Assembly (NCBI GenBank): GCA_036375135.1
Contig: DASUSL010000091.1
Coordinates: 10,947 to 74,946 of the forward strand
Length of the DNA stretch: 64,000 bases
DNA from: Thermoanaerobaculia bacterium
GTDB lineage: Bacteria > Acidobacteriota > Thermoanaerobaculia > Gp7-AA8
Reading direction: 5' to 3'
Shown: positions 4,595-58,902 of the stretch, piece by piece
Numbering within the stretch: position 1 is the stretch's first letter
How the letters are laid out: each line of letters starts with the position of its first letter
Program-made: the position numbers and the translations under genes
The notes under the pieces: generated by a model
Databases searched by the model: none
Told to the model about the DNA's origin: nothing
The model's input: the letters and a program-made list of their open reading frames with translations, nothing else

Positions 4595-4635
4595 TCTTCA
4601 TGACCTCCAGGGGAGCGAGATTGTATAGCGTTGAT

Positions 4636-4906: not shown

Positions 4907-4934
4907 CGCAGGCAAGTGAAGCTAGGTCAATGGC

Positions 4935-8738: not shown

Positions 8739-8855
8739 CGGGCGCGGATTCTATCTCCTCCGTCCCACGGAGGATAACGATGAACGATGAGCGATGAACC
8801 GCCTTCACCCCGGATGGGAGGCAGGGTTCATCGTTCATCGTTCATCGCTCATCGT
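8739..8855 (-). promoter_or_regulatory. structured purS leader: long imperfect hairpin built from GAACGAT/ATCGTTC heptamer repeats, plus a small hairpin that pairs the purS Shine-Dalgarno
   Basis: GATAACGATGAACGATGAGCGATGAACC ... GGTTCATCGTTCATCGTTCATCGCTCATCGTTC arms. On the purS sense strand, CCTCCGTGGGACGGAGG occludes GGAGG about 14 nt before the ATG. Confidence 0.5.
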
Positions 8856-9692
8856 TCAAAAGAGCGATAGCTGGCCCGGGAGGGGCTTGCGCTCGCGGCG
8901 GCGGGCGACGTCGAAGAGGCCTGTCGGCTCGAATTGTTTCGCAATGGAAAACTCGAGGCTCGCGCCCGTGCGGCGAAGCAGGCGCGTGCACATGTCGCGG
9001 ACGATCGACTCGTGGTTGTTCTTCTGCGAGAGGTGGATCATGCAGAGCGTCTTCAGGTCGGCGCCGAGGAGGCGCTGCACGGCGCTCACGGAATCGTCGT
9101 TCGACAGGTGGCCGAACCGCGACATGATCCGGCGCTTGAGCGACCACGGATAGCTGCCCATGCGGAGCATGTCCAGATCGTGGTTGGATTCGAAGAACAG
9201 GCCGTCGCATCCGCTGAGGTGGTCGAGCACTTCGCGGTTCACATAGCCGAGGTCGCTGGCGATGCCCACGCGGGTGCCGTCGCGGGACTCGATGACGAAG
9301 CAGGAGGGGTCCGCCGCGTCGTGGATCGTCTTGCGGGCGTGGACCTGCAGCTCGCCGATCCGGAACGTCGTGTCGTTCTGGAACACGACCATCTTCACGT
9401 CCGTCGTGTCGATGTTCGACGCGTCGAGCGTGCCTTTGGTCAGATAGATCGGCACCTCGTACTTGCGGGCGATCTTCTCCGCCCCGCGGATGTGATCGTA
9501 GTGCTCGTGGGTGACGACGATCGCCGAGAGCCGCTCGATGTCGCACCCCAGCGTGGCCAGGCGCTTCTTCGTGTCCCTGGGACCTATGCCGGCGTCCACG
9601 AGGATGGCTGTGCCGTCGCTCTCGAACCAGTAGGCATTCCCGGCCGAACCGGAGGAGAGAGGGGCCACGAGCATGGAGCGATGGTAGCTCAT
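8856..9692 (-). CDS. MBL-fold metallo-hydrolase
   Basis: THEHYDH (HxHxDH) motif and GSGSAGNAY N-terminus; about 270 aa. The start may be the internal ATG (MLVAPLSSGS). Confidence 0.8.
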   Translation of the reverse strand: MSYHRSMLVAPLSSGSAGNAYWFESDGTAILVDAGIGPRDTKKRLATLGCDIERLSAIVVTHEHYDHIRGAEKIARKYEVPIYLTKGTLDASNIDTTDVKMVVFQNDTTFRIGELQVHARKTIHDAADPSCFVIESRDGTRVGIASDLGYVNREVLDHLSGCDGLFFESNHDLDMLRMGSYPWSLKRRIMSRFGHLSNDDSVSAVQRLLGADLKTLCMIHLSQKNNHESIVRDMCTRLLRRTGASLEFSIAKQFEPTGLFDVARRRERKPLPGQLSLF

Positions 9693-9744: not shown

Positions 9745-11034
9745 ATGGCTGAACGGTTTATCGTCGAAGGTGGTCACCGGCTCGAAGGCTCGATCCGGCC
9801 GGGCGGCAACAAGAACGCGGCGCTGCCGATCCTGGCGGCGTGTCTGCTGACGGACGAGCCGGTGGTGCTCCGGAATCTGCCGGACATCCAGGACGTCCGG
9901 GTGATGCTGCAGATTCTCGAAGGGATCGGCGCCTCGGTCGAGCGTCTCGAGCAGAACGTCGTGCGCGTCACCGCGAAGGGCGACATCTCCTGCAACCCCG
10001 ACACGGAGCTGTCGAAGAAGATCCGCGCCTCGATCCTCCTGGCCGGGCCGCTGCTCGCGCGGTGCGGGAGTGTCTCCGTGGCGAAGCCGGGCGGAGACGC
10101 GATCGGCCGGCGCCGCGTCGATACGCATCTCCTCGCGCTGGAAGCCCTCGGCGCGCAGATCGAAGTGTCGGCGTACGAATACAACATGTCCGCCCGCGCG
10201 CTGCGCGGGAAGAAGATGTTCCTCGACGAGGCCTCGGTCACCGCAACCGAGAACGCGATCATGGCCGCGGTGCTGGCCGAGGGCGATACGTTGATCTACA
10301 ACGCCGCCGCCGAGCCGCACGTGCAGGACCTCTGTCACATGCTCATCTCCATGGGCGCGCAGATCGAGGGGATCGCCACCAACCAGTTGAGGATCCAGGG
10401 AGTCGAGGCCCTGCACGGCTGCGACTACACCATCGCCAGCGATCACATCGAGGTCGGCTCGTACATCGGCCTGGCGGCGGTGACGCGCAGCGAGCTGGTG
10501 ATCGAGGACGCCGTCCCCGAGCACATGTACGCCGTGCGGCACATGCTCGAGAAGCTCGGCGTCGAGATCAAGATCGAGGGGAAGAACATCCGCGTCCCGC
10601 GCAACCAGGAGCTGCGCGTCCGCTACGACATCGGCGCCGCGGTGCCGAAGATCGACGACGGACCGTGGCCGCTGTTCCCGGCGGACCTGCTGTCCATCAT
10701 GGTGATCATCGCCACGCAGGCCGAGGGGACGGTGATGATCTTCGAGAAGATGTTCGAGTCGCGCCTGTTCTTCACGGACAAGCTGATCGGCATGGGCGCG
10801 CGGATCATCCTCTGCGACCCCCACCGGGCCATCATCGTCGGCGGCGCGCGCCTGTACGGCGGCGAGATCTCCAGCCCCGACATCCGCGCCGGCATGGCTC
10901 TGCTCCTGGCCGCGCTCTGCGCGAAGGGGGAGAGCATCATCCACAACGTGCATCAGATCGACCGCGGCTACGAGCGGATCGACGAGAGGTTGAACGCGCT
11001 GGGGGCGCGGATCCGGCGCGAACGGGACGTCTGA
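9745..11034 (+). CDS. murA: UDP-N-acetylglucosamine 1-carboxyvinyltransferase
   Basis: MAERFIVEGGHRLEGSIRPGGNKNAALPILAACLL...; full-length EPSP-synthase-fold MurA. The ORF also allows an upstream ATG at 9730. Confidence 0.95.
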   Translation: MAERFIVEGGHRLEGSIRPGGNKNAALPILAACLLTDEPVVLRNLPDIQDVRVMLQILEGIGASVERLEQNVVRVTAKGDISCNPDTELSKKIRASILLAGPLLARCGSVSVAKPGGDAIGRRRVDTHLLALEALGAQIEVSAYEYNMSARALRGKKMFLDEASVTATENAIMAAVLAEGDTLIYNAAAEPHVQDLCHMLISMGAQIEGIATNQLRIQGVEALHGCDYTIASDHIEVGSYIGLAAVTRSELVIEDAVPEHMYAVRHMLEKLGVEIKIEGKNIRVPRNQELRVRYDIGAAVPKIDDGPWPLFPADLLSIMVIIATQAEGTVMIFEKMFESRLFFTDKLIGMGARIILCDPHRAIIVGGARLYGGEISSPDIRAGMALLLAALCAKGESIIHNVHQIDRGYERIDERLNALGARIRRERDV

Positions 11035-15531: not shown

Positions 15532-16281
15532 CCGCGGTGGACGCTCGCAGGGAAAACCGCCCTCGTCACCGGCGCGACGAAAGGCATCGGCCTGGCCATC
15601 GCGAACGAACTGGCGGCCTTCGGCGCTGACGTCATCGGCGTGGCACGTGGCAATGTGGCGACGGGCTTCAGCCCTTCGCGTGACGGGCTGAAGCCCGTCA
15701 CCACATTCGCAGCCGACATGAGCAGGCCGGAAGACCGCCGGCGCCTCATCGAAGGAATCGACAGACTCGACATCCTCGTCAACAACGCCGGCACGAACAT
15801 CCGCAGGAAGGCGATCGATTACGAGGACGGCGAATACGAGCGCATCCGCGAGCTCAATCAGGATGCGGTGCTTGATCTCTGCCGTCTCGCGCATCCGCTC
15901 CTGAAGCAATCGGGCGAGGCGAGCATCGTCAACATCGTCTCCGTGGCCGCCTTCCGCCACCTCGGCACCGGCATCCCGTACGCCATGACCAAGGCGGCCG
16001 TGGCGCACATGACCCGCGGCCTCGCGGCGGAGTGGGCGGCGGACGGGATCCGCGTCAATGCCGTGGCGCCGTGGTACATCCGCACGCCGCTGGCGCAGCC
16101 GGTGCTCGACGACCCGTTGCGTCTGGCGAAAATCCTCGAGACCACGCCATTGAAGCGCGTCGGCGAGCCGGAGGAAGTCGCGTCGCTCGTTGCATTTCTC
16201 TGCATGTCGGCCGCGTCTTACATCACCGGACAGTGCATTGCGGTCGATGGCGGATTCAGCGTTGCCGGTGTTTTCCAATAA
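15526..16281 (+). CDS. SDR family oxidoreductase
   Basis: [12 protein letters not shown] and YAMTKAA motifs. Carries a 15-aa in-frame insertion ([15 protein letters not shown]) encoded by the GGGCTTCAGCCC palindromic element at 15661-15698. Confidence 0.85.
15661..15698. repeat. palindromic element GGGCTTCAGCCC ... GGGCTGAAGCCC (F2 family), in-frame within the SDR gene
   Basis: ACGGGCTTCAGCCCttcgcgtgACGGGCTGAAGCCCGT. The same core occurs at 26765, 41085/41271 and 54272. Confidence 0.8.
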
Positions 16282-17394: not shown

Positions 17395-20662
<3,268 letters not shown>

Positions 20663-20690
20663 CGGGGGCGAATGATACAGTTTCGGACCG

Positions 20691-20764
20691 CAGTGCTGAG
20701 TGCTGGGTGCTGAGGGCTGAGACCACAGCGAAACTCAGCACCCGGCACTCAGCACTCAGCACTG
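20691..20764. repeat. hairpin of tandem heptamers (GTGCTGA)n / (TCAGCAC)n, occupying the carB divergent intergenic region
   Basis: GCAGTGCTGAGTGCTGGGTGCTGAGGGCTGAG ... CTCAGCACCCGGCACTCAGCACTCAGCACTG. It abuts ATG 20766 and lies 29 nt from the carB ATG. Confidence 0.85.
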
Positions 20765-21742: not shown

Positions 21743-21775
21743 TGGAAGGACAGGCAATCCTGCCTGTCCTCCACT
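21743..21775. repeat. palindromic element GTGGAAGGACAGGCAATCCTGCCTGTCCTCCAC (F1 family), intergenic copy
   Basis: A 14-bp stem around an ATCC loop. Five more copies fall inside coding regions (23765, 33010, 40312, 54036, 54078). Confidence 0.85.
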
Positions 21776-23416: not shown

Positions 23417-23842
23417 TTGATTCCGCGGTTTCCGGTCATGTACACGCAGAAAAAGTCCATCGACAACACGCACGTCGTTCGCGAGCGGGATCGCCAGCGA
23501 AACCGTGAGCTGGTCGCCGTCCTCTCCTTCGGCGTCCCGATCGGCCTCTTTCTGCTCCTGTTCACCTGGCAGAACCTCGAGGTCATCCGCCTCGGCCGCG
23601 AAGCCACGAAGCTGCAGAAGGACCTCAAGAACGTCACCGCCGAGCACAAGGCCCTTCAGGCCGAGCTCGATCGCCTGACCTCCTTCGACGCCGTCGAGAA
23701 CAAAGCGAAAGACCTCGGCTTCCAGACCACGGAAGCAAAAAACATCATCATCATCGAACCGCCAGTGGACGACAGGCGATCCCGCCTGTCGGGACAGGCA
23801 GGATTGCCTGTCCTCCACAGTCCTGCGAACGGAGCGCGGTGA
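23417..23842 (+). CDS. ftsL: cell division protein FtsL
   Basis: Small bitopic protein: TM helix VAVLSFGVPIGLFLLLF, then a coiled coil; located between rsmH and ftsI. The C-terminus carries an in-frame F1 palindromic insertion (VDDRRSRLSGQAGLPVLHS). The start may be the ATG at 23438. Confidence 0.7.
   Translation: MIPRFPVMYTQKKSIDNTHVVRERDRQRNRELVAVLSFGVPIGLFLLLFTWQNLEVIRLGREATKLQKDLKNVTAEHKALQAELDRLTSFDAVENKAKDLGFQTTEAKNIIIIEPPVDDRRSRLSGQAGLPVLHSPANGAR
23765..23818. repeat. tandem double copy of the F1 palindromic element inside the ftsL 3' end
   Basis: GTGGACGACAGGCGATCCCGCCTGTC GGGACAGGCAGGATTGCCTGTCCTCCAC. Confidence 0.85.
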
Positions 23843-28749: not shown

Positions 28750-29837
28750 TGCTGTTTCACCTCCTCTACCGGTTGCGGGACGTCTTCGTCGGCTTCAACG
28801 TCTTTCGCTACATCACCTTCCGCACGGCCTTCGCCGCGCTGACGGCGCTGCTCATCTCGCTCATCCTCGGTCCGTGGCTGATCGAGCGCATGCGCCGCAT
28901 CAAGCTCGGGCAGTACATCCGCGAGGAGGGGCCGAAGTCGCATCAGTCGAAGGCGGGCACGCCGACGATGGGGGGCATCCTCATCTGCGTGGCCATCATC
29001 ATCCCGACCATCCTCTGGGCCGACATCCTCAACCCGTACATCTGGATCGTCCTCTTCGTCACCGCGGCCTACGGCGCGATCGGCTTCATCGACGACTATC
29101 GCAAGCTCGCCAAGAAGCGGAACCTCGGCCTGACCAGCAAAGAGAAATTCGCCGCGCAGTTCATCGTGGCGCTGCTGGTGGCGCTGGCCATCGCCTACCT
29201 GCCGATGCTGAAGAACAACTACTCCACGGCCATCACCTTTCCGTTCCTCAAGGACGTGGTGCTGAACCTGGGGCTGCTCTACATCCCGTTCGTGATGATC
29301 GTGCTGGTCGGCGCGTCGAACGCGGTCAACCTCACGGACGGCCTCGACGGACTGGCCATCGGCTCGTCGCTGATCGCGGCGGTCACCTTCACCGTGCTCA
29401 CGTACGCGTCGGGACACGCGCGCATCGCCGAATACCTGCGCATCGCCTGGGTGCCGCAGACCGGCGAGCTGGCCGTCTTCTGCGGGGCGATGGTCGGCGC
29501 GTCGCTGGGGTTCCTCTGGTTCAACGCGCATCCGGCCGAGATTTTCATGGGCGACGTCGGCTCGCTCGCTCTGGGCGGCGCGATCGGCTGCCTGGCCGTG
29601 ATGATCAAGCAGGAGCTGCTGCTCGTGCTCGTGGGCGGGCTGTTCGTCCTCGAGGCGCTCTCGGTGATCCTGCAGGTGGCCTCGTTCAAGATCACCGGAC
29701 GGCGCATCTTCAAGATGTCGCCGCTGCATCACCACTTCGAGCTGTCGGGGTGGAGGGAGACCAAGGTCGTCGTGCGCTTCTGGATCATCGCCATCATCTT
29801 CGCGATGCTCGCGCTGGCGACGCTGAAACTGCGATGA
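28749..29837 (+). CDS. mraY: phospho-N-acetylmuramoyl-pentapeptide transferase
   Basis: Ten-TM MraY with DDxxD and NAVNLTDGLDGLA motifs; TGATG overlap with murF. Confidence 0.95.
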   Translation: MLFHLLYRLRDVFVGFNVFRYITFRTAFAALTALLISLILGPWLIERMRRIKLGQYIREEGPKSHQSKAGTPTMGGILICVAIIIPTILWADILNPYIWIVLFVTAAYGAIGFIDDYRKLAKKRNLGLTSKEKFAAQFIVALLVALAIAYLPMLKNNYSTAITFPFLKDVVLNLGLLYIPFVMIVLVGASNAVNLTDGLDGLAIGSSLIAAVTFTVLTYASGHARIAEYLRIAWVPQTGELAVFCGAMVGASLGFLWFNAHPAEIFMGDVGSLALGGAIGCLAVMIKQELLLVLVGGLFVLEALSVILQVASFKITGRRIFKMSPLHHHFELSGWRETKVVVRFWIIAIIFAMLALATLKLR

Positions 29838-29920
29838 GAGTCTCAGAGTCTCAAAGGCGCAAAGTCTCAAAGGAGGAGGCGACCTCTTTGCGACTTTGCG
29901 ACTCTGCGACTTTGAGACTT
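29838..29920. repeat. inverted repeat built from tandem roughly 10-mers (AGTCTCAAAG / CTTTGCGACT) with the RBS AGGAGGAGG in its loop, between mraY and murD
   Basis: GAGTCTCAGAGTCTCAAAGGCGCAAAGTCTCAAAGG aggaggcga CCTCTTTGCGACTTTGCGACTCTGCGACTTTGAGACT. Confidence 0.8.
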
Positions 29921-31251
29921 CGGTTCACCAACGTATGAGCAAAACACTCGTGATCGGCGCCGCAAAATCCGGCGTGGCCGCGGCGAACTGGCTCGCCGCC
30001 CACGATGCCGACGTGCGTCTGACCGACCGCGAGGCCGATCCGGTGCTGCCGTACGAGGTCGATCCACGCGTGGAGCGCGCGTTCGGCGTGCACTCGGCCG
30101 ACGTGCTCGACGGCGTGACGCAGATCGTGCTCAGCCCCGGCGTGCCGATGACCATTCCGCTGTTGCATGAGGCGGCGGCGCGCGGCATCGAGATCATCGG
30201 CGAGATCGAGCTCGCGTTCCGCAATCTGAAGGGGATCGTCATCGCCATCACCGGCTCGAACGGCAAGTCGACGACGACCGCGCTCATCGGCGAGATCCTC
30301 CGCGTGGCCGGACGGCAGCCGATCGTGGCCGGCAACATCGGCGAGCCGCTCATCGCCTCGCTCGACGAGGAGCGCCCGCGCACCTACGTGCTCGAGCTCT
30401 CGTCGTTCCAGCTCGAGGCGGTGGACAGCTTCCGCGCCAACGTGGCCCTGCTGCTGAACATCACCCCCGATCACATGGACCGCTACGCGAACTTCGACGC
30501 CTACGCCGCGGCGAAGTACCGCATCTTCCGCAACCAGGAATCGGGCGACACGGCCATCGTCAATGCCAGCGACCGCCGCGGCGCGTCGCGCGACAGCGTG
30601 GCGCGGCAGTGGCGCTTCTCGGCGACGAAAACGGTCGACACGGGCGCGTGGCTCGACGGCGACGAGCTGGTCACGAACGTCGGCGGCGACGAGCGCCGCA
30701 TCCCGCGCTCGATGCTGAAGCTGCAGGGACAGGCCAACGTCGAGAACGCGCTGGCCGCCTGGCTGGCCGCGCGCGCGGTCGGCGTCGACGACGTCGACGT
30801 ACAGATCGCCTTCGGCACGTTCGCCGGACTGCCGCACCGCATGGTGCTCGTGCGCGAGCTGGACGGCGTCCGCTGGATCAACGACTCCAAAGGCACCAAC
30901 GTCGACGCCACGTTGAAATCGCTGGAAGGCTTCGACGAATCGAGCGTGATCCTCATCCTCGGCGGCAAGGACAAGGCGGGCGAGTTCGAGCGCATGCGCG
31001 ATCTCGTCTCCGCGAAGGCGCGCACGGTCCTGACCATCGGCGCCGCCGCCGAGCGCATCGCCGAAGGATTGAACGGCGCCAGCGAGATCGTCCCCGCCGG
31101 CGACATGCAGCGCGCCGTCGAATGGGCGCGCGCGAACGCAAAGTCCGGCCAGACCGTCCTGCTCTCCCCCGCCTGCGCGAGCTTCGACCAGTACCGCAAC
31201 TTCGAGCATCGCGGCGAGCACTTCGAAGAGCTGGTGAGGGGACTGCGATGA
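29896..31251 (+). CDS. murD: UDP-N-acetylmuramoylalanine--D-glutamate ligase
   Basis: VIGAAKSGVAAANWL Rossmann-like N-terminus and GSNGKSTTTAL P-loop. The ORF begins with TTG 29896; the more likely start is ATG 29935 (MSKTLVIG). Confidence 0.9.
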   Translation: MRLCDFETSVHQRMSKTLVIGAAKSGVAAANWLAAHDADVRLTDREADPVLPYEVDPRVERAFGVHSADVLDGVTQIVLSPGVPMTIPLLHEAAARGIEIIGEIELAFRNLKGIVIAITGSNGKSTTTALIGEILRVAGRQPIVAGNIGEPLIASLDEERPRTYVLELSSFQLEAVDSFRANVALLLNITPDHMDRYANFDAYAAAKYRIFRNQESGDTAIVNASDRRGASRDSVARQWRFSATKTVDTGAWLDGDELVTNVGGDERRIPRSMLKLQGQANVENALAAWLAARAVGVDDVDVQIAFGTFAGLPHRMVLVRELDGVRWINDSKGTNVDATLKSLEGFDESSVILILGGKDKAGEFERMRDLVSAKARTVLTIGAAAERIAEGLNGASEIVPAGDMQRAVEWARANAKSGQTVLLSPACASFDQYRNFEHRGEHFEELVRGLR

Positions 31252-31266
31252 GCCGCGCTGGACGTC

Positions 31267-31351
31267 GAAGTGCTGAGTTCTGGGTGCTGCGTGCTGAGTC
31301 GCTTGCCGCCCACTGCCTCTGCTCAGCACTCAGCACTCAGCACTCAGCACT
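31267..31351. repeat. hairpin of tandem heptamers (GTGCTGA)n / (TCAGCAC)n between murD and ftsW
   Basis: GAAGTGCTGAGTTCTGGGTGCTGCGTGCTGAG ... CTCAGCACTCAGCACTCAGCACTCAGCACTTC, 22 nt before the ftsW ATG (GGAGG RBS between them). Confidence 0.85.
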
Positions 31352-31372
31352 TCGCCATGCTGGAGGCGCTCG

Positions 31373-32467
31373 ATGAGCAGGAAATTGTCCTTCGACTCCT
31401 GGCTCTTCGCCACCGCCACGATCATCGTCGTGGTGGGGATGGTCATGATCTACAGCGCCTCGGCCATGATCGCCACGCAGCGCTTCGGTCACGGGCCGTA
31501 CTACTTCCTCACGCGCCAGGGCGTCTTCCTGCTCGCCGGCGCGCTGGCGATGCTCTTCCTCATGCACGTCAATCCCGCGTTCCTGCAGGACCGGCGAGTG
31601 CAGTACGGCGCGCTCGGCCTCGTCGCGCTGGGTTTGATCGTGGCGCTCTTCCAGTCACCGATCAACGGCACGCATCGCTGGATCGACTTGCCGTATTTCA
31701 ACCTGCAGCCGTCGGAGTTCGCGAAGCCGGCCATGATTCTCTTCCTGGCGTCGTTCCTGGCGCGGCGGGAAGAGCGGATCAACGACATGACCGGCACGCT
31801 GCTGCCGGTCGGCTTCATCCTGGCGCTCTTCGCCGGACTGATTCTCCTCGGCCGCGACTTCGGCACGGCCACGACGCTGGTCCTCGTGGCCAGCGCCATG
31901 ATCTTCGCCGCCGGCATCTCGTGGCATTACATCGCCGGCCTCTCTCTGGGACTCATTCCGGCGATCGGCTACTTCGCCGGCAGCGCCGCGTACCGGCGCG
32001 AGCGGCTGCTGACGTTTCTGAATCCCGAGGCCGATCCGCTGGGCAAAGGGTTCCAGCCGATGCAGTCGCTGATCGCGCTGGGGACGGGCGGCTTCGAGGG
32101 ACTGGGGATCGGCAACGGGAGGCAGAAGCTCTTCTTCCTCCCCGAGCCGCACACTGATTTCATCTTCTCGATCATCGGCGAGGAGCTCGGCTTTCTCGGC
32201 GCCGTGCTGCTGCTGGCGGCGTTCGCGCTGCTGGCGTGGCGCGGCTTCCGGATCGCCCGCTACAGCCACAGCCGCTTCGCGTTCTACGCGGCGCTCGGCT
32301 GCACGCTGATGATCGTCATCCAGGCGCTGATCAACGTCAGCGTGGCGTTGTGTCTCCTGCCGACGAAAGGGATTCCGCTGCCGCTGGTGAGCTACGGCGG
32401 ATCGTCATTGATCGTCAGCCTCATCGCGGTGGGGCTGCTGCTGAATTTCTCCCAGCAATCGGGCTGA
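31373..32467 (+). CDS. ftsW: SEDS-family peptidoglycan glycosyltransferase FtsW
   Basis: Ten-TM SEDS protein (IYSASAM...; LPEPHTDFIFS; PLPLVSYGGSS) in the dcw cluster between murD and murG. Confidence 0.9.
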   Translation: MSRKLSFDSWLFATATIIVVVGMVMIYSASAMIATQRFGHGPYYFLTRQGVFLLAGALAMLFLMHVNPAFLQDRRVQYGALGLVALGLIVALFQSPINGTHRWIDLPYFNLQPSEFAKPAMILFLASFLARREERINDMTGTLLPVGFILALFAGLILLGRDFGTATTLVLVASAMIFAAGISWHYIAGLSLGLIPAIGYFAGSAAYRRERLLTFLNPEADPLGKGFQPMQSLIALGTGGFEGLGIGNGRQKLFFLPEPHTDFIFSIIGEELGFLGAVLLLAAFALLAWRGFRIARYSHSRFAFYAALGCTLMIVIQALINVSVALCLLPTKGIPLPLVSYGGSSLIVSLIAVGLLLNFSQQSG

Positions 32468-32487: not shown

Positions 32488-33603
32488 ATGGGCGTGACGG
32501 GCGTGTTGATGGTTGCAGGCGGTGGGACGGGAGGCCACATCTATCCCGCCATCGCCATCGCACGGGAGTATCTCGCGCGCGATGCCGCGCGCAGCGTCGT
32601 CTTCGTCGGCACCGAGCGCGGTCTCGAAAAGACCATCGTGCCGAAGGCCGGCTTCCCCCTCGAGTTCATCGACGTCGGCGGCCTCAAAGGCAAAGGCGGC
32701 CTCGATCTCGTCAAGAACATTTTCCGGGTGCCGAAAGGCTTCATCCAGGCCTGGAAGCTGATCGGCAAGCACCGGCCGAGCGTGGTCCTCGGCGTCGGCG
32801 GCTACTCCTCGGGACCGGTGCTGCTCGCCGCCAGAATGCGCGGCGTTCCCACCATCGTCCACGAAGCGAACGCCTTCCCCGGTCTCGCCAACAGAAGCCT
32901 CGCCAAATTCGTCACCACCGTGGCCGTGGCCTTCGCGGAAGCCGGCCCGCGCATGAAGCGCAAAGACGCGGTGGTGACGGGCAACCCGATCCGAGCGGAG
33001 TTCTTCGAAGTGGGGGACAGGCGATCCCGCCTGTCCGGACAGGCAGGATCGCCTGTCCTCCACCGGCTGGTCCTCTTCGGCGGGTCGCAGGGCTCGCGCA
33101 TCCTCAACGACACCATGACCGGCGCGCTGCTGTTCCTGGCCCGTCACAAGGAGACGCTGGAGATCGTTCACCAGACCGGGCCGAACGAGCTGGAAAAAGT
33201 GCAGGCCGCGTATCGCACCTCCGCGTTCGCGGACACGGCGCGCGTCGTCCCGTATCTCGACCCCATCGTCGACGAGATCGCATCGGCCGACGTCGTGGTC
33301 TGCCGCGCCGGCGCCATGACCATCGGCGAGCTCGCGGCCATCGGGCGGGGCGCGATCCTCGTCCCCTTCGCCGCGGCCACGAACAACCACCAGGAATTGA
33401 ATGCGCGCGTCGTGGAGCGTGCCGGCGGGGCGGTGGTCATTACCGAAAAAGAGCTGTCGCCGGAGCGGCTGGCCGGCGCGATCAACGAAGTGCTGGCCGA
33501 TCCGCAGCGGGCCGCGCGCATGGGCGCGGCGGCGAAAACGCTGGCCATGCCTCAGGCAACGAAAACCATCGTCGATTTAATCGAGCGTATTCAGAGAATC
33601 TAA
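32488..33603 (+). CDS. murG: undecaprenyldiphospho-muramoylpentapeptide beta-N-acetylglucosaminyltransferase
   Basis: MVAGGGTGGHIYPAIAIA N-terminus and GT-B C-terminal domain with GAMTIGELAA. Contains an in-frame F1 double palindrome (DRRSRLSGQAGSPVLH) between the two domains. An alternative ATG lies at 32509. Confidence 0.9.
   Translation: MGVTGVLMVAGGGTGGHIYPAIAIAREYLARDAARSVVFVGTERGLEKTIVPKAGFPLEFIDVGGLKGKGGLDLVKNIFRVPKGFIQAWKLIGKHRPSVVLGVGGYSSGPVLLAARMRGVPTIVHEANAFPGLANRSLAKFVTTVAVAFAEAGPRMKRKDAVVTGNPIRAEFFEVGDRRSRLSGQAGSPVLHRLVLFGGSQGSRILNDTMTGALLFLARHKETLEIVHQTGPNELEKVQAAYRTSAFADTARVVPYLDPIVDEIASADVVVCRAGAMTIGELAAIGRGAILVPFAAATNNHQELNARVVERAGGAVVITEKELSPERLAGAINEVLADPQRAARMGAAAKTLAMPQATKTIVDLIERIQRI
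33010..33063. repeat. tandem double copy of the F1 palindromic element inside murG
   Basis: GTGGGGGACAGGCGATCCCGCCTGTCC GGACAGGCAGGATCGCCTGTCCTCCAC. Confidence 0.85.
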
Positions 33604-40034: not shown

Positions 40035-40783
40035 CGGTCGTTGAAGAGATTCACGACCTCCGCGTGCAGCCGCTCCGCGTGCGGGAAGCCGCGCTCGAGC
40101 GGCGCGTAGTGGCGGCTGGCGAAGAGTCCCGCGTCGAAGATCGCGCGCACCAGCTCCTCGGCGCGTGCGACGCGGATGTTGAAGCGCCACGTGCAGAGCT
40201 CCGGCGGCATTTGGACTTCCAGCGGGATGATTTCCCGATAGATGGCGTTGAGCCGCGCCTTCACGTCGTCAGCCCGGTCTCGCTCTTTGAGAACGCGCTC
40301 GAGATACTCCGGTGGAGGAGAGGCAATCCTGCCTGTCCCGGACAGGCTGTATTGCCTGTCCTCCATCATCTGCGCGAAGCCGCCCTCGCCGAGGTCGACA
40401 TACTTTGCGTAGCCCGTACTGAAGAGCGTCACATCCGCATGTGGCGAAAGATCCGTCCCTTCGACGTCGGGCGGACAGAGGCACCGATCGTCGACGATCC
40501 TGAAGTCCTCGCGCGCGAGCTCCGCAAAGAACGCGTCCGCGTCGTAGACCGCCCCGTACGTCCGCACGAAGACCACGCCCGCGCAATGCGGCGCACGAGA
40601 AAGAATCTGCTCGCGCGACGGCTCCAGCGTGACGGGGTCGACGTCGACCAGCTCGTACGCGCGCCCCGCGGCGCGCAGCGTGGCCGGCACGATGTCGCAG
40701 ACGTTGGCGGGGAGGAGCCACACCCCGTCGTGTGAGGCCACGACGTCGTGCAGGATGGCCGCGGCGCGGTGAGCGTAGATCAT
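39971..40783 (-). CDS. short DegT/DnrJ/EryC1/StrS-family (PLP-dependent aminotransferase-like) protein
   Basis: LPANVCDIVPATLRAAGRAYELVDVDPVTLEP...FRIVDDRCL...FSTGYAKYVDLGEGG resembles the DegT core including the Lys-containing motif. Contains an in-frame F1 double palindrome (EDRQYSLSGTGRIASP). Confidence 0.45.
   Translation of the reverse strand: MIYAHRAAAILHDVVASHDGVWLLPANVCDIVPATLRAAGRAYELVDVDPVTLEPSREQILSRAPHCAGVVFVRTYGAVYDADAFFAELAREDFRIVDDRCLCPPDVEGTDLSPHADVTLFSTGYAKYVDLGEGGFAQMMEDRQYSLSGTGRIASPPPEYLERVLKERDRADDVKARLNAIYREIIPLEVQMPPELCTWRFNIRVARAEELVRAIFDAGLFASRHYAPLERGFPHAERLHAEVVNLFNDRYFDEEKATRAAELVRRHVTR
40312..40366. repeat. tandem double copy of the F1 palindromic element inside the DegT-like gene
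   Basis: GTGGAGGAGAGGCAATCCTGCCTGTCC CGGACAGGCTGTATTGCCTGTCCTCCAT. Confidence 0.85.
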
Positions 40784-42015
40784 CGCAGCCGCTCGAGCCG
40801 CTGCTGTTCGCGGGCGATGTTGTGCGCATCGACCGCGTCCGCGGTCATGTCGTCGCGCGTCGTGTAAGGCTCTTCGAAAGAGCGGAGGATGTCCGGCGCT
40901 TCCTCTTCGCGGATGCCGGCGTCGTAGCCAAGGAGGCGCATCTCGGGGAAGCAGGTCGCTTCGACGAAGCGGATCACGTCCCGCGGCAGCACGTCGCGAT
41001 ACGCTCCCACCGACTCACGCGAGACGCCCCGCCGCTCGCCGTGCGACGAGTTGCCACCCCACGACATGCTCTCCCCAATGTGGGGCGTGGCTTCAGCCCG
41101 CCCCTCGGGCGGGGTGGGGGGCACCGGGATAGGCGGGACCGGGGTGGGCGGCACCGGGATAGGCGGGACCGGGGTGGGCGGCACCGGGCCGGGCGGCACC
41201 GGGGTGGGCGGCACCGGGATGGCCGGCACCGGGCCGGACGGCACCGGGCCGGCCGGCACCGGGGTGGGCGGGCTGAAGCCGCGCCCCACATTGGCCAGCA
41301 GTCGTTGCAGTTCGGCCGCGGGGGCTTGCGTGAGGTCTTCGTAGCGCAGCCAGTGAAAACCCGCGCGTCCTTCGAGCTCGAGCGCGAAGGCGACGCTCTT
41401 GCGCCACTGCCGGATGTTGAAGAGCGTCGGCTTCAGCGCGCCGCCGAACTCCGGGCCGCGGCCGTGATTGAGCGACGCCAGCACGTCGCGCGGATCGCGC
41501 ACGATCAGCGCGCACGACACACCCGCGTCGAGAAACGCGGGGAGAAACTCCTCGCACGTCGTCTCCTTCGCCCCGGCCACCGGCGCGTCGCGGCGCGCCA
41601 GCCCGCGCCAGAGCGCGGTCATCATCGGCACGAACGGAGCGTCGGTGAGTGCGGCGTCCGTCTCCTCGCGCGTGAAGCGCGTGTACTGGCCGGAGTAGGT
41701 CTCCATCCGCGCGAAGAGCGCACGCGCGCGCTCGCGGTCCAGCGTGTAGTCGCGCAGGAACGCCGTGAAGTCGGCGGGCGTGTAGCGCGTTTCGCCGAAG
41801 AGGTGGCCGAGCGGGTAGCGCGCGTCTTCTTCGCCGAGCGTGCGCAGAAAGTCGCGCTTCGCCTCGACGAACAGCAGCGGCGCGGGCTGGGAAAGGATCG
41901 TCAGTGAAGGCTGTGCGTCGAGCAGCTTTTCGAGAAGCGTCGTTCCCGAGCGCTGCATGCCGGTGATGAACATCCGGCGCGAATGATAGGGCATGGTAGG
42001 ATGCGCGGCCCTCAT
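40780..42015 (-). CDS. sulfotransferase-domain protein carrying an in-frame Pro-rich pentapeptide repeat insertion
   Basis: [17 protein letters not shown] is the PAPS 5'-phosphosulfate-binding loop; an RDPRD region follows. A 73-aa insertion (GRGFSPP[TPVPx]n...[13 protein letters not shown]) is encoded by the composite repeat 41075-41294. The start may be an internal ATG (MPYHS, rc 41992-41994). Confidence 0.75.
41075..41294. mobile_element. composite MITE-like element: about 30-bp terminal inverted repeats containing the F2 GGCTTCAGCCC core, flanking ten 15-bp tandem repeats (GGCACCGGGGTGGGC)
   Basis: Left CCAATGTGGGGCGTGGCTTCAGCCCGCCCC; right GGGCGGGCTGAAGCCGCGCCCCACATTGG (one mismatch to the rc of the left arm). 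The internal 150 bp is 10 x 15 bp, read as PxVPx pentapeptides on the minus strand. Confidence 0.8.
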
Positions 42016-43714: not shown

Positions 43715-44406
43715 GTCGCGCCATCCCCAGATGAAGCGCGGCGCGTCCGGTCCGGTGTGGAACAGGAGATCGATGATGCTGACGCGGTGCTCGAACGGCG
43801 GGTGGAACTGCGGGTACTCGGGATAGCCGGCGTAGTCCTTCCACGTCAGCTCGATGCCCTGGGCCTCGAAGCCCTCCGGCTCGATGTAGCTTTTCGCGGC
43901 AGGGCCGGAGAGATACGCGCTCGCACCGGTCTCGCGCAGGATGGCCAGCAGCCGATCCTGCCGCCGCAGCTCCGGAGCCATGCCGCGCGAGTCGCCGAAG
44001 ATGGTGCGGATGCCGAGAAGCTCCGTGGCGATCGCGCGGATGAGATGCTGATTGAGATCCGACAGCAGACGCCACGGGCGCGCCAGGTAGATCTCCTCGA
44101 AGAACGGGCGATAGAGATCGAAAAACGGTGCGCGGCCGTAGGCCTCGCGGATGCGCCGCCAGTGCGTCGCGGCCCACGTGTCGGATGGAAGCTCGACGTC
44201 GCAGATGCGGCGGCGGAGGTCGGTGCCGACGGGGATGGTCAGCCACTCGGCGCCGTTGGCGGTCTTGATGCGGTTGCGGTTGCGCCAGTCCTGCCGCGTG
44301 TACTGCACGTCGTCGAGGAAGATCAGCTCGTCGACGTCATGGATAATGTCGAAATAGCCTTTCCACGGGAGATAGCCGGATTGAAGGATTGCGACGCGCT
44401 TGGCCA
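43685..44406 (-). CDS. WbqC-like family protein
   Basis: MAKRVAILQSGYLPWKGYFDIIHDVDELIFLDDVQYTRQDWRNRNRIKT matches the WbqC N-terminal signature. The longer ORF upstream is GC-artefact extension. Confidence 0.7.
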
Positions 44407-45344
44407 TGCAGGAGCAGAGTAGGAGTATAGCCACGCCGGACGTGTCGATCGTCGTCCCCGTGTACAACAGCCCCGACCTCGTCGCGCTCGTCGACCGCAT
44501 CGACGCCGCGTTCCGCGGCCGCGCCGAGTCGTACGAGGTGATCCTCGTCGACGACGCCTCGCCCGACGCGCGCATCTGGCCGCGACTGGAGACGCTGGCG
44601 CGCGAGCGCGCGCACGTGGCGGCCATTCAGTTGTCGCGCAACTTCGGACAGCAGGCGGCCACGCTGTGCGGACTGCGCGAGGCGCGCGGCGCCGTGGCCA
44701 TCACCATGGACGACGACCTGCAGCACGATCCGGCCGACATCCCGCTGCTGCTCGCCGCGCGCGGGCACGACATCGTCATCGGCGTGCTGGCCGGCAGGAA
44801 GCATCACTTCCTGCGCCGCGCCGCGAGCCGCGTCAAGAACGTCTTCGATCGCATCGTGATCGGCACGCCGAAGGGACTGCAGCTCAGCTCCTTCCGCCTG
44901 CTCAGCCGCACGGTCATCGACGGCGTGCTCTCCATGCGCACCGCGCGTCCGTTCCTCCCCGCGCTCCTGTTTCACGTGAGCAAGGACGCGACGGCGGTGC
45001 CGGTCACGCACAGCCGCCGCGCGGCGGGGCGCAGCGGCTACACGTTCTCGCGGCTCCTCGCGCTCTTCAGCAATCTGGTCATCAGTAACTCGTCGATCCT
45101 GCTGCGCGCGGGCGCGTACGCGGGCTTCACCTTCGCGTTCGTGAGCTTCGTGCTGGCGGCGATCGTCATCTACCGCAAGCTCGTGCACGGGCTGGCGGTG
45201 CAGGGATGGGCGTCGCTCTTCGCCGCGGTGATGCTGGTCGGAGGACTGATGCTCATCCAGCTCGGGATCATCGGCGAGTACCTGATCCGCATCATCGAGA
45301 CCGGCGAGGCGAAGCCCGCCTACATCGTGCGCCGCCGCTGCTGA
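44400..45344 (+). CDS. polyprenol-phosphate glycosyltransferase (GT2, ArnC/DPM1-like) with two C-terminal TM helices
   Basis: VSIVVPVYNSPDLVALVDRI, VILVDDASPD, QLSRNFGQQAATLCGL, then a DDDLQHDP catalytic region and C-terminal TM helices; ArnC/GtrB architecture. Confidence 0.8.
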   Translation: MAMQEQSRSIATPDVSIVVPVYNSPDLVALVDRIDAAFRGRAESYEVILVDDASPDARIWPRLETLARERAHVAAIQLSRNFGQQAATLCGLREARGAVAITMDDDLQHDPADIPLLLAARGHDIVIGVLAGRKHHFLRRAASRVKNVFDRIVIGTPKGLQLSSFRLLSRTVIDGVLSMRTARPFLPALLFHVSKDATAVPVTHSRRAAGRSGYTFSRLLALFSNLVISNSSILLRAGAYAGFTFAFVSFVLAAIVIYRKLVHGLAVQGWASLFAAVMLVGGLMLIQLGIIGEYLIRIIETGEAKPAYIVRRRC

Positions 45345-45480
45345 GGGGAACCGACGAAGAGGCCTCCGGCGGGCCGACGGGGCCGGCAGCGCCGGTTGCT
45401 CCGCCGAGAGCGTGCGTTCAGCGAAGCAACAAGCGCTGCCGGTCGCACCGGCCCGCCGGAGGCCTCCCGGTCGGTCTCCT

Positions 45481-46635
45481 TCAGAAGCTGCAGACCGCGT
45501 CGATGATGCGCGTCTGGTCCGCCTCGCTGAGCGTCGGATACAGGGGGAGGCGCACGACGCGATCGCTGACCGACTCCGCGACCGGGCAGTCGCCGGGGCG
45601 GCCGCCGAACCGCTCGCCCATCGCCGAGAGGTGCAGCGGCATGTAGTGGAAGATCGCCTGCACCGAGCGGCGGCGCAGATGGGCGATGAAGGCCTGCCGT
45701 TCGTCGAGCGACGGCAGGAGCAGGTGGAAGAGGTGCCAGGCCTGCGTGCAGTGCTCCGGCACGTGCGGCAATTGCACGCCGCGTTGCTGCGCCCAGTCGC
45801 GGATGCCGTCGAAGTAGCGCTCCCAGACGCGCTGGCGGGCGCGCTGGATCTTCTCGCGCGCCTCGAGCTGCGCGACGAGAAACGCGGCCAGCATGTCGGA
45901 GGCGACGTAGCTCGAGCCGAGGTCGAGCCACGTGTACTTGTCGACCTCACCGCGAAAGAAGCGGCTGCGGTCCGTCCCTTTCTCGCGGAGGATCTCGGCG
46001 CGCGCGATGAGCGACGGATCGTTGATCACCAGCGCGCCGCCCTCGCCGCAGGAGACGTTCTTCGTCTCGTGAAAGCTGAGCGTGCTCAGCGCGCCGAACG
46101 TGCCGAGGGGGCGGCCGCGGAACTGGCCGAAGAGACCGTGCGCGTTGTCTTCGATGACGTTGATGCGGTTGCGGCGCGCGATGTCGAGGATCGTGTCGAG
46201 CTCGCAGCCGACGCCGGCGTAATGCACGGGGACGATGGCGCGCGTGCGCGGCGTGATGAGCTGCGGCAGCAGGCGCTCGTCGAGGTTGAGCGTATCGGGA
46301 CGGATGTCGATGAACACCGGCCGCGCGCCGCGCAGTGCGAAGGCGCTGGCCGTGGAGACGAAGGTGAACGACGGGATGATCACCTCGTCGCCCGGCTGGA
46401 GATCGAGCAGCAGCGCGGACATCTCCAGCGCGTGCGTGCACGACGTCGTGAGGAGCACGCGCGCGCCGCCCAGGAGCTCGGACAGCATGCTCTCGCTGCG
46501 GCGCGTGTAGACGCCGTCGCCGGAGATGTGCCCCCGCTCGATGGCGTCGCGGACGTACGCCAGTTCCTGCCCGGCCAGCGACGGCCGGTTGAACGGAATG
46601 GCCGGCTCGATCACTGCGCGTTCGGCTTCTTTCAT
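45481..46635 (-). CDS. DegT/DnrJ/EryC1/StrS-family sugar aminotransferase (WecE/ArnB-like)
   Basis: IPFNRPSLAGQELAYVRDAIERGHISGDG...SCTHALEMSALLL...VIIPSFTFVSTA...FSFHETKNVSCGEGG...DKYTWLDLGSSY, colinear with dTDP-4-amino-4,6-dideoxygalactose transaminase. Start ATG rc 46633-46635. Confidence 0.85.
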   Translation of the reverse strand: MKEAERAVIEPAIPFNRPSLAGQELAYVRDAIERGHISGDGVYTRRSESMLSELLGGARVLLTTSCTHALEMSALLLDLQPGDEVIIPSFTFVSTASAFALRGARPVFIDIRPDTLNLDERLLPQLITPRTRAIVPVHYAGVGCELDTILDIARRNRINVIEDNAHGLFGQFRGRPLGTFGALSTLSFHETKNVSCGEGGALVINDPSLIARAEILREKGTDRSRFFRGEVDKYTWLDLGSSYVASDMLAAFLVAQLEAREKIQRARQRVWERYFDGIRDWAQQRGVQLPHVPEHCTQAWHLFHLLLPSLDERQAFIAHLRRRSVQAIFHYMPLHLSAMGERFGGRPGDCPVAESVSDRVVRLPLYPTLSEADQTRIIDAVCSF

Positions 46636-46667
46636 CACTCCTTCGACGATGCCAGAATACCGGAGCG

Positions 46668-47297
46668 ATGAGCCACCGAACCAGCGGTCTGTACAGATTT
46701 CTGGAGGTGCCCGCGCTCTACGAAGCCCTGCAGCGTCTCCTCGGCGCGGACGCCGCGCGGAAACGATTCGTCGCACGCTTTCTCCGTCCCGCGAGCGGCA
46801 TGCGCATCCTCGACATCGGCTGCGGTCCCGGCCCGATGCTCGACTATCTCCCCGCCGATGTCGCCTACACCGGCTACGACCTGAACGCGGCGTACATCGA
46901 GGCGGCGCGGCAGCGCTACGGCGCGCGGGCGCGCTTTCTCCACGCACGCGTCGGTGAGGAGCCGGCCGAGATCGAGGCGTCGAGCTTCGACCTCGTCATC
47001 GCCAAGGGGATCCTGCATCACCTGAACGACGACGAGGCGCATCAGCTCCTGCGCGCGGCATTCCGCTATCTCCGTCCGGGAGGCTTCTTCGTGTCGCTCG
47101 ACGGCGTGCGTCACGAGGGTCAGAAGATGCTGTCGCGATGGATCATCTCGCTCGATCGCGGGCGCGCCGTGCGCGATCCGGAGGGTTACGAGCGTCTCGC
47201 GCGCGCACACACGCCGGCGGTGGAAGGAGCACTGATCACCGACTGGCTGGCGGTGCCGTACAGCTACTACATCATGCGCGCGCAACGGACGCCGTGA
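46668..47297 (+). CDS. class I SAM-dependent methyltransferase
   Basis: ILDIGCGPGPM (motif I) and DLVIAKGILHHL. Confidence 0.75.
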   Translation: MSHRTSGLYRFLEVPALYEALQRLLGADAARKRFVARFLRPASGMRILDIGCGPGPMLDYLPADVAYTGYDLNAAYIEAARQRYGARARFLHARVGEEPAEIEASSFDLVIAKGILHHLNDDEAHQLLRAAFRYLRPGGFFVSLDGVRHEGQKMLSRWIISLDRGRAVRDPEGYERLARAHTPAVEGALITDWLAVPYSYYIMRAQRTP

Positions 47298-54249: not shown

Positions 54250-54333
54250 CAGGGCAGGCCACAAAAACGTAGGGCAGGCTTCAGCCTGCCCATGGACAGG
54301 CTGAAGCCTGTCCTACGTTACGCCTGTCCTGCC
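54250..54333. repeat. compound palindromic element combining F2 (GGCAGGCTTCAGCCTGCC) and F1-like (GACAGGCTGAAGCCTGTCC) cores; fills the convergent murI/rodA intergenic region
   Basis: GCAGGGCAGGCCacaaaaacgtaGGGCAGGCTTCAGCCTGCCCatgGACAGGCTGAAGCCTGTCCtacgttacGCCTGTCCTGCC; likely a bidirectional terminator or REP. Confidence 0.75.
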
Positions 54334-57382: not shown

Positions 57383-57444
57383 GGGTGCTGGGTGCTGAGT
57401 GCTGAGTGCTGAGAACTCAGCACCCAGCACTCAGCACTCAGCAC
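57383..57444. repeat. hairpin of tandem heptamers (GTGCTGA)n / (TCAGCAC)n between mreD and mrdA
   Basis: GGGTGCTGGGTGCTGAGTGCTGAGTGCTGAG aa CTCAGCACCCAGCACTCAGCACTCAGCAC, 12 nt upstream of the mrdA ATG. Confidence 0.85.
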
Positions 57445-57456
57445 TTCTCTTTCATG

Positions 57457-58817: not shown

Positions 58818-58902
58818 AGATTTCGCGAAGTCAGCTCAGCAGATTTCCTGCCACCGCGCCGGCCGGAGCTAACTTTCCTTTCCCCCTCGCGTAGTTCGAC
58901 AC

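Follow-up and report, generated by a model that had tools for sequence, protein, structure and literature searches.

An excess of tandem heptanucleotides in bacterial non-coding DNA has gone unexplained for decades, under names that include short tandemly repeated repetitive (STRR) sequences and long simple sequence repeats (LSSR), and for single units such as GGGAATC and TAACTGA. The present analysis concerns three hairpins with arms of tandem GTGCTGA and TCAGCAC units in a 64,000-nucleotide stretch of a Thermoanaerobaculia bacterium (contig DASUSL010000091.1; this whole stretch is called the window below), and above all the one at the junction of murD and ftsW, the focal hairpin. To the earlier picture, the window and its relatives add that the paired, inverted form of such repeats behaves as a fast-turnover insertion at gene junctions, that its arms follow a strict orientation rule in at least eight phyla, and that coupled operons appear to filter the inserts for a reading frame linking the flanking stop and start codons.

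Of the systems already described, the nearest is that of the inverted GGGAATC heptamer pairs in Xanthomonas. These arrays, mostly of four units, are mostly intergenic between co-oriented genes, and in 70-75 cases per genome two nearby arrays occur that are always convergent and capable of forming a stem-loop (Rehm et al., 2015, PLoS One, PMC4692102). Positions are shared by two species in 83% of instances while lengths vary, and the function was left unresolved; the GGGGA(C/T)T repeats of Nostoc are covered in the same paper (PMC4692102). The hairpins of the window have both defining features of the Xanthomonas pairs, heptamer arrays of about four units and a convergent stem-loop with the G-rich arm first. 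They differ in the unit itself. The Xanthomonas repeat is a single G-tract unit that has been read as a G-quadruplex former, whereas GTGCTGA contains no GG, and only its GTGCTGG variant gives GGG across unit borders. Here, moreover, many unrelated units are in use, orthologous junctions carry different units or none, and there are open reading frames (ORFs) that bridge the hairpins. Neither such ORFs nor the removal of in-frame stops is described for Xanthomonas.

Other tandem heptamers resemble the hairpins in part. Cyanobacterial STRR heptamers were reportedly described by Mazel and colleagues in 1990. LSSRs, as summarized in a later paper, have units of 5-11 nt, among which heptanucleotides are commonest (Mrazek et al., 2007, via PMC4679880). 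In these accounts both are tandem heptamers over-represented in the non-coding DNA of scattered phyla, including the Nostocales, as are the arrays studied here, but they are direct arrays, and inverted pairing, a length of about four units and insertion behavior fall outside the definitions as relayed there. The TAACTGA heptamer occurs in 2-6 copies in marine Beggiatoaceae, cyanobacteria and Bacteroidetes, mostly a few nucleotides upstream of start codons, and is patchy across phyla with no evident transfer mechanism (MacGregor, 2015, PMC4679880). A single repeated heptamer near starts and a patchy distribution recall the GTGCTGA hairpins; TAACTGA sets are almost all direct, however (169 against one indirect set; PMC4679880), and hence form no hairpin.

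Two further systems are comparable in location rather than in repeat unit. According to a review, mycobacterial interspersed repetitive units (MIRUs) ‘insert themselves at start codons’ while retaining an ORF coupled at -4 (Supply et al., 1997, via PMC12548453). As far as that summary goes, the likeness lies in intercistronic operon insertions with a small ORF overlapping the flanking stop and start, an arrangement seen here in 15/18 inserts of the dcw cluster. MIRUs are units of 46-101 bp that form a conserved sequence family of non-palindromic direct repeats, whereas the present inserts are palindromic, have 7-8-nt units and are unrelated in sequence between sites. A MIRU-like coupling ORF is found at the focal hairpin and at another between mraY and murD, and is missing from the remaining two GTGCTGA hairpins (sites 1 and 3). 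Repetitive extragenic palindromic (REP) sequences of Escherichia coli can protect upstream mRNA from 3′ exonucleases. Like the hairpins, the REP sequences, bacterial interspersed mosaic elements (BIMEs) and REP doublets (REPINs) of Enterobacteria and Pseudomonas are dispersed extragenic palindromes often located within an operon (PMC3116915 for REPINs). Unlike them, REPs constitute a conserved family of 20-40 nt tied to a RAYT transposase, while the heptamer hairpins have tandem-repeat arms, many units and no common flanks.

The three near-identical hairpins had been noticed in a preliminary description of the window, and an inverted-repeat search, Tandem Repeats Finder (TRF), shuffles and folding all confirm them. 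Site 1 occupies the spacer between carB and a divergent 156-aa ORF (ORF156), with arms at 20691-20721 and 20734-20764 (31 nt, 87% complementary, 12-nt loop). Site 2, the focal hairpin, has arms at 31266-31298 and 31322-31354 (33 nt, 91% complementary, 23-nt loop), and site 3 lies at the junction of mreD and mrdA, both on the minus strand, with arms at 57385-57413 and 57416-57444 (29 nt, 93% complementary, 2-nt loop). At site 1 the 5′ arm reads GTGCTGA, GTGCTGG, GTGCTGA, GGGCTGA and the 3′ arm TCAGCAC, CCGGCAC, TCAGCAC, TCAGCAC. At site 2 the 5′ arm reads GTGCTGA, GTTCTGG, GTGCTGC, GTGCTGA opposite four copies of TCAGCAC, and the stem is lengthened by CGAA/TTCG. In every arm of the three sites TRF counts 4.1-4.4 copies of the unit. 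The 14-mer (GTGCTGA)2, with up to two mismatches, has 18 matches in the window where 0.43 are expected, none of them outside the three sites, and the count was reached by 0/100 shuffles.

The predicted stems of 29-33 bp agree with the roughly 30-bp stems in polycistronic mRNA that had been proposed. Their sense-strand RNA folds at -68.3 kcal/mol (z -4.8) for the murD-ftsW hairpin and at -54.3 kcal/mol (z -8.1) for the mreD-mrdA hairpin, while the carB/ORF156 hairpin folds at -58.9 kcal/mol (z -9.6) on the plus strand and -53.5 on the minus strand; no shuffle equals any of the three. Stems of this length are sufficient for RNase III, which recognizes near-continuous double-stranded RNA of about 20 bp or more, and their cleavage is a prediction. 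CarB, MurD, FtsW, MreD, PBP2/MrdA, MraY and other proteins of the dcw cluster, together with MreB, were confirmed by Pfam, and MreD and the 156-aa ORF have their named homologues in metagenome-assembled genomes of Thermoanaerobaculia (Acidobacteriota). The window has a G+C content of 66.7%, and G+C at third codon positions (GC3) yields a clear gene map.

Placement just ahead of start codons, as first described, holds for ORF156, ftsW and mrdA, whose starts are 1, 18 and 13 nt from the respective stems; the start codon beside site 1, however, is not that of carB but the ATG of the divergent 156-aa ORF at 20766. At site 2 a Shine-Dalgarno-like GGAGG (31362-31366, plus strand), as read from the sequence, lies outside the stem and 6 nt upstream of the ftsW ATG. 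The site 3 hairpin begins 12 nt past the mreD stop (57459-57457) and ends ahead of the mrdA ATG (57371). Nor does site 1 cover the whole promoter region, as had been supposed: the hairpin is separated from carB by an AT-rich, -10-like box, TATCAT (20672-20677, minus strand), located 9 nt before the carB ATG, and hairpin-less relatives have ATAGTATA in the equivalent place. This box is a putative promoter element only, as consensus scans for promoters (sigma-70 included) and terminators at the three sites returned nothing at the hairpins. Further -10-like boxes beside hairpins occur at 1786, 4625 and 8750, again with no consensus promoter found.

The hairpins are young and recurrent, because relatives whose flanking genes are 85-99% identical either have none at the same junction or have one built from a different unit. 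For the same reason none of them is conserved at its own junction, which speaks against the earlier proposal of dedicated regulators of ftsW, mrdA and carB. The murD-ftsW junction was compared across 15 relatives (FtsW identity 65-88%), which have at least eight different repeat units or an overlap without spacer. One relative (L120) has GTGCTGG/TCAGCAC, the same unit as the window. In others the unit is GCAGAGG (L121), AGCTCTT (L126), AAATGCA (L130), GCGATCA (L132) or GGTGACC-like (L134); period-8 units are found in L123, L127 and L128 and a plain palindrome in L133. In L122, L125, L131 and L135 the spacer is missing and the murD TGA overlaps the ftsW ATG as ATGA, and in L129 it measures 3 nt. 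Between the window and L120, the 3′ arm is identical at 29/29 positions and the 5′ arm at 25/28, the loop at about 38%, and the left linker barely aligns. At the neighboring mraY-murD and murF-mraY junctions most relatives have the overlap, in a conserved context (ctgcgATGAgc); overlap is therefore ancestral and the spacers are insertions.

The other two junctions show the same polymorphism. Between mreD and mrdA, the hairpin is absent from seven relatives (L200-L203 and the L237-L240 group). The spacer measures 6-15 nt in L200 (99% MreD identity), L203, L237-L239 and L240, and 51 nt, also without hairpin, in L201 and L202, while in L236, with an MreD identity of 97%, GGTTGCG-type units make up a palindrome of 132 nt. 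Between carB and ORF156, four relatives with carB identities of 85-95% lack a hairpin; the spacer of L204-L208, in the same identity range, is 22 nt long and contains an AT-rich palindromic box, and carB nucleotide identity nests the window (95% to L204) among them. Only an outgroup (L050, 82%) does have a hairpin there, its arms being GTCCTGA/TCAGGAC, beside an expansion of GTGCTGA that is unpaired. Over its first 30 nt the carB of the window matches that of L204 at just 67%, compared with 93-100% deeper in the gene, a divergence suggesting that the spacer with its edge was imported by recombination or rebuilt locally. In L204-L208 (~9975-10000) the starts of carB and the divergent 156-aa ORF are 22 nt apart around a cATAGTATAgg box, a spacing that would imply overlapping divergent -10 elements and near-leaderless mRNAs. 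The carB start codon is GTG in these relatives and ATG in the window (20660-20690).

At the focal junction, the octamer CGATGAGC stands on both sides of the insert. Its left copy (31246-31253, plus strand) contains the murD stop and a vestigial start codon, its right copy (31371-31378, plus strand) the functional ftsW start and the stop of a mini-ORF, and insert-free relatives have a single copy (ctgcgATGAGC-type overlap). The duplicated target comprises only ATGA plus 0-4 nt, with a length that varies from 3 to 8 nt. A longer duplication of about 20 nt, covering the ftsW ribosome-binding region, was rejected by alignment against random windows (0/15 with p<0.05; combined p=0.27), and the left octamer copy is not followed by a repeat of the 5′ coding sequence of ftsW. 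Strain-level variants were sought with an exact look-up of the window FtsW, which gave no match. In more distant Acidobacteria, with FtsW about 50% identical (L136, L140, L142, L145), the murD-ftsW spacer contains a conserved motif of about 35 nt, cgcaggctaccccggtctgcgaggtcggtgtccc; in L136 (~1480-1520), direct AAAGGCA/AAAGTCA repeats stand right before the ftsW GTG.

The focal hairpin lies wholly within a mini-ORF of 42 codons (31248-31376, plus strand). Its ATG is part of the ATGA that ends murD (31248-31251) and its TGA (31374-31376) overlaps the ftsW ATG at 31373; the frame stays open through the hairpin, where the sole in-frame TGA position of the array (31281-31283) reads TGG. A second mini-ORF, of 34 codons (29834-29938, plus strand), spans the mraY-murD hairpin in the same manner, with an ATG overlapping the mraY stop and a TGA overlapping the murD ATG at 29935. 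Across the family, bridging ORFs of 21-104 codons occur in 15/18 inserted junctions of the dcw cluster, where 2.2 are expected when spacer interiors are shuffled and their length randomized by 0-2 nt (P=2.9e-13). Ribosomes are expected to read through the hairpin and so to preserve coupling, rather than to find the start codon blocked. For annotation, short ORFs across such hairpins are best regarded as coupling devices and not as genes, and a protein search with the focal mini-ORF peptide found no match.

A perfect (GTGCTGA)n array with n of at least 3 closes all three frames through TGA. At each of the three sites TGG replaces TGA in the one unit where it would fall in the relevant frame, at 31281-31283 (site 2), 20704-20706 (site 1) and, in the sense direction, 57426-57424 (site 3). 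The change retains a G·U pair with the opposite arm, and can for that reason explain, in part or in full, why the sense strand folds better than the antisense strand, as it does in 24/34 co-directional cases (p=0.024). At site 3 a vestigial ATG, 1 nt past the mreD stop, opens a 5-codon ORF (57438-57455, minus strand), closed by the first TGA that the array presents. For site 1, between divergent genes, a bridging ORF was considered and rejected: the open frame ends at a TGA overlapping the ORF156 ATG, but its first start falls within the stem and no gene stands upstream to be coupled.

The GTGCTGA hairpins belong to a larger class. The window holds six tandem-repeat hairpins with four different units. 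Besides the three GTGCTGA sites, (AACGATG)n/(CATCGTT)n arms lie between two minus-strand genes at 8776-8858, with the stop of the upstream gene (8858-8856) at the edge. The hairpin of the mraY-murD junction (29839-29920; -49.6 kcal/mol, z -4.8), with its period-8 units AGTCTCAA and CTTTGCGA, has the same architecture as the GTGCTGA hairpins and a different unit, and one with 49-nt arms and a periodicity of about 11 nt, GCCGGCTTCCA and GCCGGCTGGAA, places its C-rich arm first (1798-1914). An (AAGAGAA)n/(CCTCTTT)n hairpin directly follows the mreB stop (60712-60777), and its (AGAGGAA)5 partner array (60116-60152) lies on the other side of a small inserted cassette. As the source genome is represented by 64 kb, the genome-wide picture was approximated through relatives. 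In 282 kb of family DNA there are 25 tandem-repeat hairpins, or 8.9 per 100 kb, with periods of 7 (19 hairpins), 8 (5) and 11 (1). Their arms have 3.4-5.4 copies with a mode of about 4.3, apart from one arm each in L050 and L208 with 8.7. All loci then gathered contain 94 inverted array pairs, 78 of period 7 and 11 of period 8; arrays of period 6 and period 9 are common, yet almost never paired. The hairpins are thus a general feature of these genomes and not a GTGCTGA-specific system.

The unit itself is widespread. That further (GTGCTGA)n copies should exist beyond one locus was borne out not only by the three in the window but by at least 119 stretches with (GTGCTGA)3 in a scan of one genome per species. 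Hosts among the matches listed are Thermoanaerobaculia, Blastocatellia, Pyrinomonadaceae, Chloroflexota, many Nostocales, Longimicrobium/Gemmatimonadota, Planctomycetota, Chlorobiaceae, Nitrospirota and a few others, so that the unit is spread over at least eight phyla plus viral contigs (27 stretches); many Nostoc, Calothrix and Anabaena genomes have it. Loci obtained by this pattern scan are biased toward GTGCTGA. One viral contig, IMGVR_UViG_3300005578_000008 of IMG/VR (40.8 kb; L219, L224, L227, L230, L235), contains at least 10 hairpins of GTGCTGA, GTCCTGA or TCAGAAC heptamers, a density well above that of the bacterial loci. Units are shared by 7/28 pairs of hairpins within a locus against 18/272 pairs between loci (p=0.004). 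The vocabulary of units seems limited rather than random, since GGTTGC[CG]-type units recur in family palindromes at different junctions and in different genomes (L125 ~560-600; L127 ~1010-1140; L128 ~2110-2185 and 3470-3700; L236 2000-2110; L206 16684-16782) and GTCCTGA accompanies GTGCTGA in loci of Acidobacteriota, Chloroflexota, Anabaena and Gemmatimonas.

The three copies and 30 GTGCTGA hairpins of other genomes share only their units, which speaks against a shared mobile element, and assignment to REP/REPIN or to MITEs (miniature transposable elements bounded by inverted repeats) was rejected for want of any conserved internal sequence: the loops of 23, 12 and 2 nt are unrelated, as are the linkers. 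An Rfam scan of the whole window at gathering thresholds gave 0 matches. Literature searches returned only an unrelated rice paper for the GTGCTGA dimer, and only papers on frameshifting for stem-loops with heptanucleotides.

Arm order follows a rule that is a real property of these hairpins, because a hairpin reads alike on both strands. In all 31 pairs that have the unit, (GTGCTGA)n is the 5′ arm. Of the 51 unit classes, 40 are G-first, with the G-rich arm leading, 6 are C-first and 5 neutral (p=3e-7). With consensus units the count is 33 G-first against 6 C-first (p=1.4e-5), with no A/T skew, and when only units found independently of GTGCTGA are counted the figures are 13 and 4 (p=0.049). 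Stop codons in the three frames of the first arm were considered as the cause of the G-first order and rejected, as the G-first units GGCAGAG, GACGCGGG and GGGACTG are free of stops.

The reading that best accommodates these results, and that is judged to have about an even chance of being correct, is that the hairpins are young, tolerated, self-homogenizing palindromic insertions filtered by their effect on expression, read by ribosomes in coupled junctions and acting as generic mRNA stem-loops when untranslated. Insertion would have occurred in junctions that originally overlapped as ATGA or were 6-22 nt long, with the stop/start tetranucleotide duplicated on both sides. The arrays may then be homogenized by slipped-strand mispairing within an arm and by template switching between arms, as in quasi-palindromes, which would explain near-perfect arms beside diverging loops and linkers. 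Conserved arms with unrelated loops are, in turn, a poor fit to the transposition of a defined element. An insert would persist only where expression of the flanking genes survives. In coupled junctions this would mean that it retains an open mini-ORF from the ATG of the upstream stop to the stop of the next start, with in-frame TGA units converted to TGG, which pairs with U. At the focal junction, a ribosome ending murD would presumably re-initiate at AUG 31248, melt and read the 33-bp stem, stop at UGA 31374 and re-initiate on ftsW, which also has its own GGAGG. An untranslated stem may instead be a generic intercistronic stem-loop, probably a barrier to 3′ exonucleases or a substrate of RNase III, that modulates expression rather than exerting specific regulation. 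Read-through of ~30-bp stems in essential cell-wall operons, a ribosome-coupling filter on their location, and their origin all become testable in this way.

Several observations weigh against this reading of tolerated insertions. Loops and linkers are unshared between copies, and duplications of 4-8 nt say little about an insertion mechanism, as any surviving insertion into an ATGA overlap must show one. Sites 1 and 3 have no bridging ORF, which limits the translation argument to the focal and mraY-murD hairpins, and gene boundaries outside the dcw cluster are approximate, being drawn by the GC3 heuristic. Occupancy is uneven, with inserts in ~10/15 relatives at murD-ftsW against 2/13 at murF-mraY and in about 1 junction in 10 genome-wide; this could reflect positive selection for a stem-loop at murD-ftsW and not mere tolerance. 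Finally, simple slippage predicts neither the constancy of the ~30-bp arms nor the G-rich-first rule (33-40 unit classes against 6), which point to an unknown constraint or generating mechanism. Such a mechanism could be a dedicated process, as yet unknown, by which gene junctions acquire palindromic arrays of heptamers written de novo, although this is considered unlikely. Its footprint would be about four units per arm, a period of 7 or less often 8, a G-rich 5′ arm on both strands, a unique loop, and a few units reused per genome with others at the junctions of sister lineages; the architecture is spread over Acidobacteriota, Chloroflexota, cyanobacteria and Xanthomonas as well as viral contigs. 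A possible route is that a G-rich strand is synthesized reiteratively, copied by snap-back and inserted where the DNA is broken; the orientation rule would then also render the palindrome repairable after central cleavage. If true, this would amount to a new genome-writing or mobile process distinct from ordinary slippage.

The main rival to tolerated insertion takes the hairpins for adaptive cis-acting RNA stem-loops, whether REP-like 3′ stabilizers, RNase III/E sites or ribosome-flow dampers that would set the ratio of a scarce membrane protein, FtsW or PBP2, to the upstream enzyme. This is a tentative but serious possibility: the stems are of RNase III size (29-33 bp) and lie 12-14 nt past the upstream stop, arm length is uniform at ~30 bp, arms are conserved while loops diverge, the sense fold is the more stable in 24/34 co-directional cases, and murD-ftsW has repeatedly gained hairpins of different units (~10/15 relatives occupied). 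Yet close relatives manage with an ATGA overlap or a 6-22-nt spacer at all three junctions, the G·U bias of the sense strand is explained as well by TGA-stop removal or by deamination of the non-template strand, a stem read by ribosomes would often be open, and neither a U-tract nor an Rfam family match is present. The REP-like or RNase III role suggested earlier is thus physically plausible for dispersed extragenic palindromes with ~30-bp stems, whereas the hallmarks of a REP family are missing. A function at the DNA level, in which the G-rich arrays serve as protein-binding sites or as Chi-like sequences that make central breaks of SbcCD type repairable, is doubtful. In RecBCD/Chi geometry, the G-first order is the orientation recognized from a break at the center of a palindrome. 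By analogy, a central break might expose Chi-like G-rich motifs on both sides, which would favor repair and so the survival of the palindrome. The G-rich 5′ arm on both strands (33-40 against 6 unit classes, p ~1e-5 to 3e-7), the lack of A/T skew, the same ‘always convergent’ rule in Xanthomonas and the recurrence of G/T-rich families such as GTGCTG[AG] and GGTTGC[CG] across genomes are in keeping with such a function. However, neither a Chi sequence of these organisms nor a binding protein is known, several units are not G-rich, 6 unit classes violate the rule, and the selection on reading frame evident in the bridging ORFs operates at the level of RNA and translation. A DNA-level function also concerns the survival of the palindrome and not its activity, and is compatible with the tolerated-insertion reading.

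Presence/absence polymorphism with a short target duplication, occurrence in viral contigs and reuse of one unit at several sites of a genome (three in the window, two in L121, two in L208, four in L087), with more sharing within loci than between them (p=0.004), would also suit non-autonomous MITE- or REPIN-like elements moved by a RAYT or an IS200/IS605-type hairpin-recognizing transposase encoded elsewhere in the genome. Mobility of this kind is nevertheless improbable. The three GTGCTGA copies have no common loop, termini or linkers, the target duplication is variable (3-8 nt) with a longer one rejected, and a sequence-specific transposase does not explain dozens of unrelated units in one architecture; furthermore, no RAYT is among the annotated genes of the 64-kb window and no transposase was seen there, though no search aimed at transposases was made. 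A phase-variable switch, in which gain or loss of a 7-nt unit shifts the bridging frame or the spacing and so reversibly switches the downstream gene, is very unlikely. Tandem heptamers are indeed prone to slippage, one unit would shift the mini-ORF by +1 so that coupling is lost or regained, and the arms of some loci are unequal (L050, 8.7 against 4.4 copies). Copy number clusters tightly at about four per arm, however, the 15/18 inserts in a coupling-competent frame indicate purifying selection, and the hairpins stand beside essential genes of the housekeeping type, none with a role in surface variation or virulence. Least credible of all are transcription terminators or attenuators within or between operons. 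In lower-GC genomes (for example L114, L022 and L020) many GTGCTGA hairpins have A-rich sequence upstream and T-rich sequence downstream, the L132 hairpin is followed by TTTTTT, and the hairpin at 60712-60777 comes directly after mreB. In contrast, the sense-strand tails of the three window hairpins, CTTCGCCATG, TGTATGAAAC and CCGGACCCCC, have no U-tract, the terminator scan was negative at these sites, the stems are two to three times as long as those of typical intrinsic terminators, and the hairpins lie inside the essential dcw and mre operons, the focal one within an ORF that links cistrons. In annotation, the hairpins should not be called conserved regulators, terminators or REP elements.

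Other repeats in the window are distinct from the heptamer hairpins. A separate family, GGACAGGC-N6-GCCTGTCC, has 10 matches against 0.54 expected and looks like a genuine REP/BIME type. Its copies lie at 21748-21769, 23770-23813, 33015-33058, 40317-40361 and 54039-54099, with related palindromes at 15652-15707 and 54266-54319. They often consist of two adjacent units with complementary loops, and one pair is found at the 3′ end of the ftsL ORF.

Between mreB (60786-61811, minus strand) and mreC (57957-58817, minus strand) lies about 1.9 kb of opposite-strand DNA (58817-60786), and the two genes are adjacent in L201, L237 and L238. The intervening genes encode an amidohydrolase (58903-60117), a truncated DUF6883 ORF (60219-60347) and a DUF4926 ORF (60465-60701). 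The small cassette is flanked by the (AGAGGAA)5 array and the (AAGAGAA)/(CCTCTTT) hairpin described above, which gives the impression that a heptamer palindrome, or the DNA next to one, received it as an insertion.

Longer repeats also occur. At 4666-4880, 10.2 copies of the 21-bp tandem unit CTTCGCGAGGATTCGTTTTCG (86% matches), a length equal to three heptamers, fill much of the divergent spacer 4594-5022. A 15-bp unit, CGGGATGGGCGGCAC, is repeated 10.8 times at 41110-41271 under long ORFs, probably as part of a repetitive coding sequence. At 45334-45491 there is an imperfect palindrome, its 74-nt arms 78% complementary around a 10-nt center, where the convergent genes 44400-45344 (plus strand) and 45481-46947 (minus strand) meet.

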